The notes under the pieces were generated by a model. The model was not told where the DNA came from. It was given only the letters and a program-made list of their open reading frames with translations, and made no database searches. Below, in pieces: positions 1 to 9,306 of a DNA stretch of 9,306 nucleotides. Source of the stretch: Escherichia coli (GTDB lineage Bacteria > Pseudomonadota > Gammaproteobacteria > Enterobacterales > Enterobacteriaceae); assembly GCF_003334255.1 (NCBI RefSeq), contig NZ_QOWU01000089.1. One strand, given 5' to 3'. A program made the translations under genes and the position numbers. The first letter of the stretch is position 1. Each line of letters begins with the position of its first letter.

Positions 1-74
1 TGATGGAAATGGAAGCCACGCAAGCACCTTAAAATCACCATCATACACTAAATCAGTAAGTTGGCAGCATTACC
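1..74 (-). mobile_element. IS1-family insertion sequence, terminal fragment (element body continues off the left edge of the window); terminal inverted repeat at 52-74; InsA start codon at complement 17-19
   Basis: Positions 52-74 (atcagtaagttggcagcattacc) are the reverse complement of the IS1 terminal inverted repeat GGT(G/A)ATGCTGCCAACTTACTGAT as I recall it (one mismatch to the left repeat). The minus strand of 1-51 continues as IS1-like internal sequence, with GTG GCT TCC ATT TCC ATC (M-A-S-I-S-I, an InsA-like N-terminus) starting at complement 19. Recognition is from memory, not a search. Confidence 0.8.
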
Positions 75-220
75 GAAATCCCCATCCTTTAGGGCAGTGA
101 GGATGTCAATAATAGCAGACCACATCATGAGTCATTCTGACCGACACATGCCAGAAGCAGAGGCTCCATCCCATTTTATACCTACCTTATAACACTTAGA
201 AAAACAACATGTTAAAAATG

Positions 221-310: not shown

Positions 311-828
311 ATGTCTGACCGCGCCACTACCACAGCTTCCTTAACGTTCGAGTCGCTTTATGGCACACATCACGGCTGGTTGAAAAGCTGGCTGACGCGC
401 AAACTCCAGTCTGCTTTTGATGCAGATGACATTGCCCAGGACACTTTTTTGCGGGTAATGGTCAGCGAAACGCTCTCGACGATCCGCGATCCTCGCTCCT
501 TCCTCTGCACTATCGCCAAACGCGTGATGGTGGACCTGTTTCGCCGAAACGCGCTGGAAAAAGCGTATCTGGAGATGCTGGCGCTTATGCCGGAGGGGGG
601 AGCTCCTTCACCTGAGGAACGCGAAAGCCAACTCGAGACCCTACAACTCCTCGACAGCATGCTGGACGGGCTAAACGGCAAAACACGTGAAGCGTTTCTG
701 CTTTCGCAACTGGATGGTCTGACATACAGCGAGATTGCGCACAAACTCGGTGTTTCCATCAGCTCCGTGAAAAAATACGTGGCGAAAGCCGTCGAGCACT
801 GCCTGCTGTTCCGTCTGGAGTATGGGTT

Positions 829-832
<4 letters not shown>
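311..832 (+). CDS. fecI: ECF (extracytoplasmic-function) RNA polymerase sigma factor FecI (sigma-19), 173 aa
   Basis: ORF of 173 aa beginning [28 protein letters not shown], with a C-terminal helix-turn-helix-like segment ([24 protein letters not shown]) typical of sigma region 4. Length and sequence agree with FecI as I recall it. The stop overlaps the fecR start (ATGA at 829-832). Confidence 0.97.
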
Positions 833-4193
<3,361 letters not shown>

Positions 4194-4202
4194 TGTGTTA
4201 AC

Positions 4203-4222
4203 GCCCGGCTTGCCGGGCTTTT
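4203..4222 (+). terminator. Intra-operon stem-loop plus T-tract between fecA and fecB (attenuator-like, rho-independent terminator structure)
   Basis: GCCCGG-CTTG-CCGGGC forms a 6-bp all-GC stem with a tetraloop (4203-4218), followed directly by TTTT (4219-4222), 10 nt after the fecA stop and about 16 nt before the fecB start. It probably gives partial termination that sets the fecA to fecBCDE ratio. Confidence 0.6.
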
Positions 4223-4237
4223 AGCTGGAATGTGATT

Positions 4238-5140
4238 ATGTTGGCATTTATCCGTTTTCTTTTTGCAGGCCTGCTGCTGGTGATCAGCCACGCCTTTGCC
4301 GCCATGGTTCAGGACGAACACGGCACGTTTACACTCGAAAAAACGCCACAACGGATTGTGGTGCTGGAACTCTCGTTCGCCGATGCGCTGGCCGCCGTGG
4401 ACGTCAGCCCGATCGGTATTGCCGACGATAACGATGCAAAACGCATCCTGCCCGAAGTGCGTGCGCACCTGAAACCGTGGCAGTCCGTCGGAACGCGCGC
4501 GCAGCCGAGCCTGGAAGCCATTGCCGCTCTGAAACCAGACCTGATCATTGCCGACAGCAGTCGCCATGCGGGGGTTTACATCGCCTTGCAGCAAATCGCG
4601 CCGGTACTGCTGCTTAAGTCCCGCAACGAAACCTACGCTGAAAATTTGCAATCTGCGGCTATCATCGGCGAAATGGTGGGTAAAAAGCGAGAGATGCAGG
4701 CACGTCTGGAACAACATAAAGAGAGGATGGCGCAGTGGGCCAGCCAGCTTCCCAAAGGGACACGCGTGGCCTTTGGCACATCACGCGAACAGCAATTCAA
4801 CCTGCATACTCAGGAGACCTGGACCGGCAGCGTGCTGGCCTCTCTGGGGCTGAACGTTCCCGCTGCGATGGCGGGTGCGTCCATGCCGTCCATCGGCCTG
4901 GAGCAACTGCTGGCGGTCAATCCTGCCTGGCTGCTGGTTGCCCACTATCGCGAAGAGAGCATTGTTAAACGCTGGCAACAAGATCCGCTCTGGCAGATGT
5001 TAACCGCCGCGCAGAAGCAGCAGGTTGCTTCGGTCGACAGTAACACCTGGGCGCGGATGCGCGGTATTTTTGCTGCAGAGCGTATTGCCGCTGACACGGT
5101 AAAAATCTTCCACCATCAGCCGCTTACCGTTGTGAAATGA
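4238..5140 (+). CDS. fecB: Periplasmic ferric citrate-binding protein FecB (ABC transporter substrate-binding protein), 300 aa from ATG 4238
   Basis: ORF with an N-terminal signal peptide (MLAFIRFLFAGLLLVISHAFA) and a body typical of class III periplasmic siderophore/citrate binding proteins. The ORF track starts at GTG 4232, but ATG 4238 has better spacing to a GGA(A) Shine-Dalgarno-like element at 4227-4230 and gives the 300-aa product. The stop overlaps the fecC start. Confidence 0.93.
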   Translation: MLAFIRFLFAGLLLVISHAFAAMVQDEHGTFTLEKTPQRIVVLELSFADALAAVDVSPIGIADDNDAKRILPEVRAHLKPWQSVGTRAQPSLEAIAALKPDLIIADSSRHAGVYIALQQIAPVLLLKSRNETYAENLQSAAIIGEMVGKKREMQARLEQHKERMAQWASQLPKGTRVAFGTSREQQFNLHTQETWTGSVLASLGLNVPAAMAGASMPSIGLEQLLAVNPAWLLVAHYREESIVKRWQQDPLWQMLTAAQKQQVASVDSNTWARMRGIFAAERIAADTVKIFHHQPLTVVK

Positions 5141-6135
5141 CCGCGATAAAACACCCGGTGCTGCTGTGGGGGCTTCCCGTTGCAGCACTTATTATTATTT
5201 TCTGGCTGAGTCTGTTTTGCTACTCGGCCATTCCTGTTTCCGGAGCAGATGCAACCCGCGCCCTGCTGCCTGGACACACGCCAACGCTACCAGAAGCGCT
5301 GGTGCAAAACCTTCGTTTGCCACGAAGCCTGGTCGCCGTTCTGATCGGCGCAAGCCTGGCGCTCGCGGGCACGCTGCTGCAAACCCTGACCCACAACCCA
5401 ATGGCCTCTCCTTCACTGCTCGGCATTAACAGCGGCGCGGCACTGGCTATGGCGCTTACCAGCGCGCTGAGTCCGACGCCGATTGCAGGCTATTCTCTGT
5501 CGTTCATCGCGGCATGCGGGGGCGGCGTGAGCTGGCTGCTGGTCATGACCGCAGGAGGCGGATTTCGTCATACCCATGACAGAAACAAACTGATCCTCGC
5601 GGGTATCGCGCTGTCGGCCTTTTGTATGGGCCTTACCCGCATCACCCTGCTGCTGGCCGAAGATCATGCTTACGGCATCTTTTACTGGCTGGCAGGCGGA
5701 GTGTCCCACGCCCGCTGGCAGGATGTCTGGCAGCTCTTGCCGGTGGTGGTCACTGCAGTCCCTGTCGTGTTGCTGCTGGCGAATCAACTGAACCTGCTCA
5801 ACCTCAGCGACAGCACCGCCCATACGCTGGGAGTGAACCTGACGAGGCTACGTTTGGTCATCAATATGTTAGTGCTGCTTCTGGTTGGTGCGTGCGTCAG
5901 CGTGGCAGGTCCGGTGGCGTTTATCGGTCTGCTGGTGCCACATCTGGCGCGCTTCTGGGCAGGCTTCGATCAGCGCAACGTACTGCCAGTGAGCATGCTG
6001 CTGGGGGCCACGCTGATGCTGCTGGCAGATGTACTCGCACGCGCGCTGGCCTTCCCCGGAGATCTGCCCGCAGGCGCAGTGCTGGCGCTGATTGGCAGCC
6101 CTTGCTTTGTCTGGCTTGTGAGGAGGCGAGGATGA
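5137..6135 (+). CDS. fecC: Ferric citrate ABC transporter permease FecC (FecCD/BtuC family), 332 aa
   Basis: ORF of 332 aa, highly hydrophobic with multiple predicted transmembrane helices and the FecCD-family signature region (GxxLAxxGxLLQ...NPxAxPxLLG). ATGA overlap with the fecB stop at 5137-5140 and with the fecD start at 6132-6135. Confidence 0.97.
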   Translation: MTAIKHPVLLWGLPVAALIIIFWLSLFCYSAIPVSGADATRALLPGHTPTLPEALVQNLRLPRSLVAVLIGASLALAGTLLQTLTHNPMASPSLLGINSGAALAMALTSALSPTPIAGYSLSFIAACGGGVSWLLVMTAGGGFRHTHDRNKLILAGIALSAFCMGLTRITLLLAEDHAYGIFYWLAGGVSHARWQDVWQLLPVVVTAVPVVLLLANQLNLLNLSDSTAHTLGVNLTRLRLVINMLVLLLVGACVSVAGPVAFIGLLVPHLARFWAGFDQRNVLPVSMLLGATLMLLADVLARALAFPGDLPAGAVLALIGSPCFVWLVRRRG

Positions 6136-7088
6136 AAATTGCGCTGGTTATTTTCATCACCCTTGCCCTGGCGGGCTGTGCGCTGTTATCACTCCATATG
6201 GGAGTGATCCCCGTGCCGTGGCGCGCGCTGCTGACCGACTGGCAGGCCGGACGCGAGCATTATTATGTATTGATGGAGTACCGACTGCCGCGCTTGCTGC
6301 TGGCACTGTTTGTCGGTGCAGCCCTCGCCGTGGCGGGCGTGCTGATACAGGGGATTGTGCGCAACCCTCTGGCATCACCGGATATTCTCGGCGTTAACCA
6401 TGCCGCCAGCCTGGCCTCTGTGGGGGCTCTACTTCTTATGCCGTCACTGCCCGTGATGGTGCTGCCGCTGCTGGCCTTTGCGGGCGGCATGGCGGGGTTG
6501 ATATTACTGAAGATGCTGGCAAAGACCCACCAGCCGATGAAGCTGGCGCTCACCGGCGTGGCGCTTTCTGCATGCTGGGCCAGCCTGACGGATTATCTGA
6601 TGCTCTCGCGCCCACAGGATGTGAACAACGCCCTGCTGTGGCTGACCGGCAGCTTATGGGGCCGTGACTGGAGCTTTGTGAAGATTGCCATCCCGCTGAT
6701 GATTTTATTTCTGCCGCTGAGCCTGAGTTTTTGCCGCGATCTCGACCTCCTTGCACTCGGCGATGCGCGCGCCACCACGCTCGGTGTGTCGGTGCCCCAT
6801 ACCCGATTCTGGGCTTTGTTACTAGCTGTCGCCATGACATCTACCGGCGTGGCCGCCTGCGGCCCGATTAGCTTTATTGGTCTCGTGGTGCCGCATATGA
6901 TGCGTAGCATCACCGGTGGACGTCACCGCAGACTGCTGCCTGTTTCAGCCCTGACAGGTGCGTTGCTGTTGGTGGTTGCCGATCTGCTGGCGAGAATTAT
7001 TCATCCCCCACTGGAGCTCCCGGTTGGCGTGCTGACCGCCATTATCGGTGCGCCGTGGTTTGTCTGGTTGCTTGTGAGAATGCGATAA
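6132..7088 (+). CDS. fecD: Ferric citrate ABC transporter permease FecD (FecCD/BtuC family), 318 aa
   Basis: True start is ATG 6132 (MKIALVIFITLALAGCALL...), preceded by GAGGAGG (6121-6127). The 488-aa ORF in the track (5622-7088) is the same frame read through upstream across fecC, out of frame with fecC. Paralogous to FecC (conserved ...RNPLASPDILG... motif). Confidence 0.96.
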   Translation: MKIALVIFITLALAGCALLSLHMGVIPVPWRALLTDWQAGREHYYVLMEYRLPRLLLALFVGAALAVAGVLIQGIVRNPLASPDILGVNHAASLASVGALLLMPSLPVMVLPLLAFAGGMAGLILLKMLAKTHQPMKLALTGVALSACWASLTDYLMLSRPQDVNNALLWLTGSLWGRDWSFVKIAIPLMILFLPLSLSFCRDLDLLALGDARATTLGVSVPHTRFWALLLAVAMTSTGVAACGPISFIGLVVPHMMRSITGGRHRRLLPVSALTGALLLVVADLLARIIHPPLELPVGVLTAIIGAPWFVWLLVRMR

Positions 7089-7856
7089 ATGACTTTACGA
7101 ACTGAAAATCTGACGGTCAGTTACGGGACAGACAAGGTACTTAACGACGTTTCACTCTCACTGCCAACGGGGAAGATCACCGCCCTGATCGGTCCTAACG
7201 GTTGCGGGAAATCGACGCTGTTAAACTGTTTTTCGCGGCTTTTAATGCCGCAGTCTGGCACCGTATTTCTCGGCGATAATCCCATAAATATGCTCTCATC
7301 GCGCCAGTTGGCCCGCAGGCTTTCGCTGCTGCCTCAGCACCATTTAACGCCAGAGGGGATCACAGTCCAGGAGCTGGTTTCGTATGGTCGTAATCCCTGG
7401 CTGTCACTCTGGGGGCGTCTCTCCGCTGAAGACAATGCACGAGTTAATGTCGCCATGAACCAGACCCGGATCAATCATCTTGCCGTTCGTCGGTTAACCG
7501 AGCTTTCCGGCGGTCAGCGCCAGCGCGCATTTCTGGCGATGGTCCTGGCCCAGAATACGCCCGTTGTATTACTTGATGAGCCAACCACCTATCTTGATAT
7601 CAATCACCAGGTGGACCTGATGCGGTTGATGGGCGAACTCCGGACTCAGGGGAAAACGGTGGTCGCTGTGCTGCACGACCTTAATCAGGCTAGCCGGTAC
7701 TGCGATCAACTGGTGGTAATGGCAAACGGACATATTATGGCGCAAGGCACACCAGAAGAGGTGATGACCCCAGGATTGCTGAGAACAGTATTCAGCGTGG
7801 AAGCGGAAATACACCCCGAGCCGGTATCTGGCAGGCCGATGTGCCTAATGAGGTAG
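7089..7856 (+). CDS. fecE: Ferric citrate ABC transporter ATP-binding protein FecE, 255 aa
   Basis: Walker A GPNGCGKST, ABC signature LSGGQRQR, Walker B VVLLDEPT and H-loop VLHDLN are all present. The start ATG immediately follows the fecD TAA (TAAATG at 7086-7091). Confidence 0.97.
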   Translation: MTLRTENLTVSYGTDKVLNDVSLSLPTGKITALIGPNGCGKSTLLNCFSRLLMPQSGTVFLGDNPINMLSSRQLARRLSLLPQHHLTPEGITVQELVSYGRNPWLSLWGRLSAEDNARVNVAMNQTRINHLAVRRLTELSGGQRQRAFLAMVLAQNTPVVLLDEPTTYLDINHQVDLMRLMGELRTQGKTVVAVLHDLNQASRYCDQLVVMANGHIMAQGTPEEVMTPGLLRTVFSVEAEIHPEPVSGRPMCLMR

Positions 7857-7918
7857 ATTGCACAGGCCGTAAGAACCAAACCACGACTGAATGAAACTGG
7901 ACTGGCGCCAGCAAGCCT

Positions 7919-7943
7919 GTTCAGACTGGGGCTGAACTTTTCC
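7919..7943 (+). terminator. Weak candidate rho-independent terminator downstream of fecE
   Basis: GTTCAG (7919-7924), loop ACTGGGG, CTGAAC (7932-7937), then TTTTCC (7938-7943), about 60 nt after the fecE stop. The stem is short and not GC-rich, so this is tentative. Confidence 0.3.
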
Positions 7944-8194
7944 GGACTCTGAAAGATTACCAATACTCATCGTCCATCCGCTTGCTTTAGGCTGACAGGT
8001 TCATAATCAACGCAAACCAGAGCTGTACAGGCTTGGGCGCGGCTTTCAAACCAGTCGTGATCACGGCAATCAATTTTGAACTCTGCTTAACGGACATTTC
8101 TGTATAACCCTTACGGCAACGAAAAACGCGAAGTTAAAATTTTAGAAACCCAAAAACGTGACATGACTAAGTTTAGATTTCAGGGGGGGAGATC

Positions 8195-8220
8195 AAAAAA
8201 TTTCGCTCTGTGCCAGAGCG
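8195..8220 (-). terminator. Candidate minus-strand hairpin with trailing T-run
   Basis: CGCTCTG-TGC-CAGAGCG is a perfect 7-bp inverted repeat (8204-8220). Read on the minus strand it is followed by AAA then TTTTTT (complement of 8195-8203). It could terminate a minus-strand transcript entering from the right. Unverified. Confidence 0.25.
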
Positions 8221-8413
8221 GACATTCACGGAGCTGGTTCATTACCAATGAGGTTGGGCTTTTGAGGATAAATCAATGATCAGACGCCAACGTAAATCAA
8301 AAGCAACCCTGGAACGGAATTGCTAATCCAGTTTCTGACCATCGATTTTTCTAAAAAGTGTGCGTTTGCTACTACTTAGGTAGGTGCAGCTTTCTTAATC
8401 ACCGGCAGCCACG

Positions 8414-8745
8414 TTATACAGGCCAGTTGATGGATCGATTGTTATCAATGATATCTTTATGAGTCGGTGTCTCACCCAGCTTACCGAAGCTGGCATAAAG
8501 TGAAGGCAGACGGGCCCGTCCTTCTCCCTTTTTCGCCAGAGGGAAAGCGCGAAGCATGGTGGCAGCCTCCCAGTCACAACAATAGGATGGTGTGCACGGC
8601 TGCTGACGCCATGATTCAGCGATAGAGCCGGAAAATACGGGGTCAAAGCCGGTATCATTAACCAGAGTCATCGTGACCTGTACTGCGGCTGGATGATCTC
8701 CTGCTACTGCAACTGCTAGGCGACCGCGGCTCCCTTCAGGTAGTC
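8414..8745 (-). pseudogene. N-terminally truncated ORF of unknown function abutting the IS3-family element end (about 110 codons of native sequence; frame stays open into the IS terminal repeat)
   Basis: Minus-strand frame ...LPEGSRGRLAVAVAGDHPAAVQVTMTLVNDTGFDPVFSGSIAESWRQQPCTPSYCCDWEAATMLRAFPLAKKGEGRARLPSLYASFGKLGETPTHKDIIDNNRSINWPV-stop (stop at complement 8414-8416). The track ORF 8414-8827 begins with a Met inside the IS end, so the native 5' part appears to have been replaced by the insertion. I do not recognise a family. Confidence 0.35.
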
Positions 8746-9232
<487 letters not shown>

Positions 9233-9239
9233 TAGAGTA

Positions 9240-9275
9240 AGAGGCAGGGCGTAGTCGGACTATTTCCCTGCCTCT
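9240..9275. repeat. Perfect 10-bp inverted repeat (AGAGGCAGGG ... CCCTGCCTCT) with a 16-nt spacer, just beyond the point where IS3-family homology ends
   Basis: Read directly: 9240-9249 AGAGGCAGGG and 9266-9275 CCCTGCCTCT are exact reverse complements, separated by CGTAGTCGGACTATTT. Confidence 0.7.
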
Positions 9276-9306
9276 CCTCCCCGAACCGGACGTGCACCTT
9301 TCAGCG

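Follow-up and report, generated by a model that had tools for sequence, protein, structure and literature searches.

Introduction

The ferric citrate system of Escherichia coli K-12 is encoded by the fecIR-fecABCDE genes (Staudenmaier et al. 1989; Enz et al. 1995; reviewed by Braun 2022, PMC9249621), and a polycistronic fecABCDE transcript has been reported (PMC9249621). In the passages that cite Enz et al. 1995, the same review describes a 2.5-kb fecA mRNA that predominates over the 6-kb full-length transcript, and a hairpin 3' of fecA by which the poorly transcribed fecBCDE genes are downregulated. Here, a stretch of 9,306 nucleotides (nt) from E. coli (contig NZ_QOWU01000089.1 of assembly GCF_003334255.1) is compared with this system. 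This whole stretch is referred to as the window, and attention is given mainly to the start codon of fecB and to the junctions between the fec genes.

Other described systems also bear on this locus. Translational coupling by termination-reinitiation is known for genes that overlap by 4 or 1 nt (Huber et al. 2019, PMC6728339; Huber et al. 2023, PMC10666635). In E. coli, 24% of all co-directional gene pairs are spaced within -8 to +6 nt. The -4 overlap is the commonest spacing whatever the function of the genes, and native -4 pairs have been found experimentally to be tightly coupled by termination-reinitiation (PMC10666635). Reinitiation needs an overlap or a gap of less than about 20 nt, beyond which coupling collapses, and subunits of heteromeric complexes are 4.5-fold overrepresented among closely spaced pairs (PMC10666635). 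A different group is formed by the ambiguous initiation sites AUGUG and GUGUG, including the A4 (AUGUGA) type of frame correction (Kohl et al. 2022, PMC9841429); in E. coli reporters, AUGUGA motifs support termination dependent on release factor 2 (RF2), followed by reinitiation at the 3' GUG. Finally, intercistronic hairpins such as repetitive extragenic palindromic (REP) elements, or terminator-like stems that follow a strongly expressed first gene, are known as attenuators or mRNA stabilisers.

The window contains the classical E. coli ferric-citrate uptake and signalling locus fecIR-fecABCDE. Positions 3900 to 5300 (1401 nt) match the chromosome of E. coli ATCC 11775, and many other E. coli chromosomes, with 100% identity, and this segment is present in 2762 of the 5426 complete E. 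coli genomes. The RefSeq annotation of the identical locus places fecI, fecR, fecA, fecB, fecC, fecD and fecE at exactly the coordinates found in the window, with fecB at 4238-5140. Gene order and gene boundaries match those of annotated fec loci, and the same annotation is found for the K-12-type, BL21 and Klebsiella plasmid alleles. The genes, their order, the junctions, the fecB start and the hairpin between fecA and fecB are all shared with K-12. In the 181 nt around the fecB start a single base differs from the K-12 type, changing residue 2 of the mature protein from Thr to Met. There is no difference of substance, and the window represents a natural allele of the ATCC 11775 type. We assign a probability of roughly 0.88 to the reading in which this classical locus translates fecB from the ATG at 4238, by de novo initiation behind the hairpin, with coupled junctions further downstream.

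The Start Codon of fecB

As the preliminary description of the window had stated, the longest fecB frame begins at a GTG (4232..5140, 302 amino acids). The annotated gene (4238..5140, plus strand) encodes a periplasmic ferric-citrate binding protein of 300 amino acids, an assignment based on RefSeq, on orthologues, on the NCBIfam model NF008501 and on the features of the signal peptide. Positions 4232-4240, which hold both candidate starts, read GTGATTATG. Only one element resembling a Shine-Dalgarno (SD) sequence is present, the weak core GGA at 4227..4229 (plus strand), recognised from its duplex energy with the anti-SD sequence. It precedes the GTG by 2 nt and the ATG by 8 nt, which bears out the better spacing that had been claimed for the ATG. 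When SD energies are calculated for the duplex with a 9-nt anti-SD, the best pairing is that of UGGAA (-3.3 kcal/mol), which leaves a spacing of 7 nt to the ATG and much too short a one to the GTG. Another estimate for the ATG, of -8.4 kcal/mol with a 13-nt tail of 16S rRNA, was discarded; it arises from a GUGAUU/GAUCAC pairing against the start codon itself, a non-functional geometry. RNA folding of positions 4185-4270 gave a structure no more stable than that of shuffled sequences (z = -0.35), so that, within this segment, there is no sign of a structure masking the start beyond the terminator-like hairpin.

A further line of evidence is comparative. The orthologue set comprises 31 loci from other species (Enterobacter, Kluyvera, Citrobacter, Silvania, Pseudenterobacter, Xenorhabdus, Photorhabdus, Pectobacterium, Erwinia, Pantoea and Serratia), with FecB proteins 60 to 88% identical to that of the window; 29 of these loci are usable for the start codon. 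An ATG is found at the codon equivalent to 4238 in 27 of the 29, and in most orthologues a GGAG-type SD sequence is located 4-7 nt from it, at the same place as the weak GGA of the window; the median energy of the orthologous elements is -5.9 kcal/mol, against -3.3 in the window. In 11 Photorhabdus loci an in-frame stop codon directly precedes the conserved ATG, at a distance of one codon, and in the Pectobacterium loci such a stop is found 4-6 codons upstream, and no start-type codon separates it from the ATG. For these organisms the conserved ATG is therefore the sole possible start of fecB. One member of the set is unlike the rest of the family: Xenorhabdus koppenhoeferi (locus L013, around 4995-5006) has ATT at the conserved start position, GTG at -6 and TTG at +3.

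Annotation and protein profiles point in the same direction. Position 1 of NF008501 aligns to residue 3 of the 302-residue translation, that is, to the Met encoded by ATG 4238. The 300-residue FecB is present on at least 1000 contigs, while the 302-residue form is found on 2, both of them GenBank entries of E. coli H736. The preference for ATG 4238 expressed in the preliminary description is thus upheld by SD spacing, orthologue conservation, RefSeq and the profile boundary. Taken together, these data indicate that fecB is almost certainly translated from ATG 4238, and they confirm that the annotated start (ATG, 300 amino acids) is the standard and already known one, and that calling the longest frame gives a wrong result here. 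In mechanistic terms, initiation at this ATG would be positioned by the weak GGA element at 4227-4229.

The alternative, in which GTG 4232 is the true start or a substantial second start and yields a 302-residue precursor with a 23-residue signal peptide, is very unlikely. It has the longest frame on its side, together with the annotation in the two GenBank records and a sub-threshold peak near -8/-6 in a published initiation profile, discussed below. The GTG is also retained in the K-12-type, BL21 and Klebsiella plasmid alleles; however, these alleles are at least 98.8% identical, and the retention therefore carries no evolutionary weight. Moreover, the Klebsiella allele changes the next codon from ATT to ACT, which alters the would-be second residue. 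Apart from the window itself, a start-type codon at -6 is found in only 2 of the 29 orthologues, Pseudenterobacter (TTG) and X. koppenhoeferi (GTG), and in many orthologues the stretch from -6 to the ATG is interrupted by a stop codon. Added to these are the distance of 2 nt from the sole SD-like element and the profile hidden Markov model, which begins at the Met of the ATG. Twelve codons in front of the ATG are free of in-frame stops, and the probability that such a stretch contains at least one ATG, GTG or TTG by chance is 0.45. On the basis of spacing, orthologues and contig counts, the in-frame GTG at 4232..4234 (plus strand), an alternative start by the longest-frame rule, is judged to be non-functional, probably a chance codon in the untranslated spacer between fecA and fecB.

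The signal peptide does not help to discriminate between the two codons. It is encoded by 4238-4300 (MLAFIRFLFAGLLLVISHAFA|A) and, by a manual rule, is divided into MLAFIR, a hydrophobic core FLFAGLLLVI (mean Kyte-Doolittle value 3.09) and SHAFA, with Ala at -3 and -1, as expected for a Sec substrate cleaved by signal peptidase I. The alignment of the solved homologue 8y4v begins at FecB residue 24. It had been argued that the ATG is to be preferred because it gives a typical signal peptide, an argument that fails: the GTG form conforms to the identical rule, with a single positive charge and an unchanged hydrophobic core (10 residues), c-region and AFA motif, and its 23-residue peptide would work equally well. 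For the same reason, the N-terminal sequencing of FecB that had been proposed as a check cannot decide the matter, both precursors being predicted to be cut at AFA|A. If the GTG were occasionally used, signal peptidase would thus release the same mature FecB from either precursor, and the start ambiguity would be without consequence for the product. The mature protein of the window starts with AAMVQ, where Met at residue 2 (4304-4306) results from a single ACG to ATG change; the K-12, BL21 and Klebsiella plasmid alleles have Thr at this position (AATVQ), and in most orthologues it is occupied by Thr or Val.

The AUGUGA Motif and Published Initiation Data

The GTG at 4232 is part of a larger motif. 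The sequence AATGTGA at 4229-4235 contains two overlapping canonical start codons: an out-of-frame ATG at 4230, followed at once by TGA, and the in-frame GTG. This AUGUGA start-stop (4230..4235, plus strand), seen in the sequence 8 nt upstream of the fecB start, resembles the motifs of Kohl et al. 2022 (PMC9841429) in that its GUG is in the frame of the gene. It differs from them in that it is not an annotated start, has no well-spaced SD sequence, is not conserved and is followed 3 nt later by a conserved AUG.

Such a motif could be a functional start-stop, with initiation at AUG 4230, termination at the UGA, and reinitiation at GUG 4232 or AUG 4238, which would feed or throttle fecB. It belongs to exactly the class for which RF2-dependent reinitiation at the 3' GUG was demonstrated (PMC9841429), and it also appears in INRI-seq, in which the initiation of every E. 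coli K-12 gene was profiled in vitro whatever its expression (PMC9825163). Table S3 of that study lists for fecB the candidate "ATG, -8, out of frame", which corresponds to position 4230, with 5.3 counts per million (CPM). However, this signal reaches the threshold in 1 of 5 replicates, remains sub-threshold as a whole and was flagged FALSE by the authors (PMC9825163). Upstream of 4230 there is no SD sequence at a usable distance: GGA directly abuts the AUG (0 nt) and is 2 nt from the GUG, and further upstream lie the hairpin and its U-run. The motif is also absent from all orthologues outside the group of E. coli and Klebsiella plasmid alleles. A functional role of 4230-4235 is therefore unlikely, and the full cycle of initiation, termination and reinitiation is very unlikely indeed. 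The supplements of the TRAINSPOTTER N-terminomics study contain no fec entries.

The Spacer between fecA and fecB

The stop codon of fecA and the ATG of fecB are separated by 44 nt, and this spacer contains a GC-rich hairpin (4203..4222, plus strand) with the sequence GCCCGGC-TTG-CCGGGC followed by TTTT, detected by a terminator scan as a terminator-like attenuator. Its stem-loop (4203-4218) consists of 6 GC pairs and a 4-nt loop; the extended stem has a folding energy of -13.5 kcal/mol. The element is situated directly upstream of the fecB ribosome-binding site, with its end 4 nt from the GGA. All 28 fecA-fecB spacers compared (the window and 27 orthologues) contain a strong hairpin, with energies from -11 to -29 kcal/mol and differing sequences. 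About half of the orthologous spacers have a U-run after the hairpin, whereas the others have longer, REP-like stems.

The GC hairpin and U-run that follow fecA are shared with other intercistronic attenuators and mRNA stabilisers, and for fec the element has already been described. In the passages of the review that concern fecBCDE expression (PMC9249621), this hairpin is known as the main dosage step between fecA and fecBCDE. The preliminary description had overlooked both the attenuator and this step. As a result of the 44-nt gap and the hairpin, fecB would be uncoupled from fecA and would have to initiate de novo on its weak SD sequence, behind a terminator-like structure known to lower the expression of fecBCDE relative to fecA.

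Gene Junctions and Probable Translational Coupling

All seven genes lie on the plus strand. The ECF (extracytoplasmic function) sigma factor gene fecI (311..832) overlaps the sigma regulator gene fecR (829..1782) in an ATGA at 829-832. It is followed by fecA (1869..4193), which encodes the TonB-dependent ferric-citrate receptor; these three genes are defined by the list of reading frames, by junction sequences and by RefSeq. An ATGA at 5137-5140 joins the stop of fecB to the permease gene fecC (5137..6135), which is supported by the list of reading frames, RefSeq and the NCBIfam equivalog NF008407. A third ATGA (6132-6135) joins fecC to the second permease gene, fecD (6132..7088; RefSeq, NF007299), and the ATPase gene fecE (7089..7856; RefSeq, NF008409) directly abuts the fecD stop in TAAATG at 7086-7091. 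The coordinates given earlier for these overlaps are all correct, and the spacings are -4 for fecI/fecR, fecB/fecC and fecC/fecD and 0 for fecD/fecE, as in coupled gene pairs. The NCBIfam scan covered FecB (NF008501, 499.5 bits; cut-off 320), FecC (NF008407, 607.8 bits; cut-off 396), FecD (NF007299, 585.3 bits; cut-off 406; residues 1-318 aligned to 1-318) and FecE (NF008409, 486 bits; cut-off 375), and the identity of FecI, FecR and FecA follows from the RefSeq annotation.

Tight junctions are only mildly enriched in the window: with the genome-wide rate of 24%, the probability of finding at least 4 of 6 is 0.033. Their conservation across 31 species constitutes the real evidence. In the window and the 31 orthologous loci, leaving aside spurious values that come from tblastn cross-matches between the FecC and FecD paralogues (loci L012, L026 and L027), the spacing of fecB and fecC is -4 in 29 of 32 cases, with single loci at -1 and +6 and one spurious value. 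The fecC/fecD spacing is -4 in 23 and -1 in 4 of 30 loci, while fecD and fecE are directly adjacent (0) in 26 of 29 and separated by +2 in the other 3. For fecI/fecR, all 25 loci fall between -4 and +2 (-4 in 13, -1 to +2 in the others). The geometry is thus constant while the flanking bases diverge.

The SD pattern is highly uneven. In 28 of 28 loci fecC has no SD sequence of its own: the energy is never better than -2.4 kcal/mol, and the median of -0.6 is weaker than the background of random positions (-2.2). In contrast, fecD has a strong internal SD sequence, GAGGAGG at 6120..6126 (plus strand; duplex energy -12.2 to -14.2 kcal/mol), within the 3' end of fecC; it reaches -5.8 kcal/mol or stronger in 19 of 19 loci, with a median of -10.3. 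The SD sequence of fecE is weak (median -2.7 kcal/mol), and that of fecR, a GGAG 8 nt upstream of the start, reaches -5.9 kcal/mol. The start of fecI (311; upstream region 290-310) is essentially without SD pairing, at +0.6 kcal/mol in the window and with a median of +0.4 in 25 loci.

An SD-less fecC at conserved junctions fits termination-reinitiation. Ribosomes that end one cistron would reinitiate on the next at the -4, -4 and 0 junctions, and this would be most important from fecB to fecC because fecC lacks an SD sequence of its own; fecD would additionally be served by its strong internal one. The likeness to the systems of Huber et al. (PMC6728339, PMC10666635) consists in the ATGA or zero-gap arrangement between subunits of a single heteromeric complex and in the SD-less fecC; the difference is that coupling in fec is deduced from the sequence and that fecD, with its own SD, may not depend on it. 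Translational coupling at the fec junctions can be considered well founded as an inference, and for fecC it is probably obligatory.

It could also be imagined that the overlaps reflect genome compaction only, each cistron being initiated independently and without functional coupling. The very strong SD sequence of fecD and the decent one of fecR would agree with this, and so would the prevalence of -4 overlaps regardless of function (PMC10666635). Nevertheless, fecC must be made, and it has no SD sequence in any of the 28 loci, with a pairing below that of random positions. Furthermore, the junction geometry is constant across 31 species despite diverging flanks, and experiments on native E. 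coli pairs with the -4 overlap have shown tight coupling (PMC10666635). Compaction without coupling therefore appears unlikely.

The preliminary description had gone further and deduced coupled translation together with a fixed stoichiometry of the transporter subunits. The first part is plausible, given the conserved junctions and the SD-less fecC in combination with the published behaviour of -4 pairs (PMC10666635); the second is overstated. The strengths of the SD sequences differ greatly, from none in fecC to very strong in fecD and weak in fecE. Reinitiation is generally less than 100% efficient, and the transporter, as a type II ATP-binding cassette (ABC) importer, needs two FecE for each FecC and FecD. 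Binding proteins, moreover, are usually made in excess. For these reasons a fixed stoichiometry does not follow. Coupling would co-regulate the subunits and probably cap FecC at or below FecB, and a 1:1:1:1 ratio would not be fixed by coupling itself.

Several points weigh against the reading of a classical locus with fecB starting at ATG 4238 and coupled junctions downstream. The SD sequence of fecB is weak (-3.3 kcal/mol), and spacing alone is therefore not a strong discriminator of the start. Since INRI-seq assigns peaks within +/-3 nt (PMC9825163), the weak fecB peak may stem equally well from GTG -6 as from ATG -8. The in vivo Ribo-RET signal is 0 at the alternative fec-gene sites of Table S3 (PMC9825163). 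A coupling experiment specific for fec was not found in the literature, a point that also favours compaction. What the sequences show directly is the identity of the locus, its coordinates, the conserved start codon and junction geometry, the distribution of SD sequences and a hairpin in the spacer; the start used in vivo, the occurrence of reinitiation and the resulting protein ratios are inferred.

The Leader of fecA

A tiny upstream open reading frame (uORF), ATGATGATGGGGAAGGTATGA (MMMGKV*), is seen in the sequence of the fecA leader at 1852..1872 (plus strand); its TGA overlaps the fecA start as ATGA. It contains ATG codons at 1852, 1855 and 1858. Of 26 informative loci, 23 have a short uORF that begins with ATG and whose stop overlaps or directly adjoins the start of fecA; they include those of Photorhabdus, Pectobacterium, Xenorhabdus and one Citrobacter with a different fecA N-terminus. 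In the three Erwinia/Pantoea loci, the ATG upstream of fecA is instead in frame with this gene. In INRI-seq, a non-annotated initiation site is called at ATG -14 of fecA (window position 1855) in 5 of 5 replicates, with 16.7 CPM (PMC9825163, Table S3). A literature search for a fecA uORF found no description. The A at +4 of fecA to some extent imposes the uORF stop, and the SD sequence of fecA lies within this segment; conservation alone is therefore no proof of function.

It is possible to speculate that the operon has two minimal control elements, the conserved uORF of 4-6 codons, which would load ribosomes onto fecA by reinitiation, and the AUGUGA, which would feed or throttle fecB. As a pair this is unlikely. 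The uORF is the stronger candidate of the two, being conserved in 23 of 26 loci from several genera and called in all five INRI-seq replicates.

Setting of the Locus

In ATCC 11775 the fec cluster is flanked by remnants of insertion sequences (IS), namely IS1F and IS3 upstream and IS3 and IS30 downstream (window positions 1-200 and 7857-9306). The small-protein gene ykiE is annotated in the same locus at about 106-174 of the window, on the minus strand. The fec genes also occur on about 1300 plasmids, most of them from Klebsiella. The IS remnants and the plasmid carriage are consistent with a mobile island.

In front of its ATG, the fecD frame runs without a stop through 170 codons that lie within fecC in a different frame, so that a mechanical search reports a reading frame of 488 amino acids from a TTG at 5622 (5622-7088, plus strand). 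This is probably a composition effect of a GC-rich gene for a membrane protein.

Conclusions

The consequences of this comparison are small. It upholds the standard annotation of fecB, and nothing new is found in the start or in the junctions, since transporter operons are usually arranged in this tight, conserved manner. The fecA uORF and the AUGUGA motif are only mildly useful by-products, relevant to the post-transcriptional control of iron uptake. The fec junctions and the SD-less start of fecC, conserved across Enterobacterales, represent a textbook-style case of likely termination-reinitiation in an ABC-importer operon.

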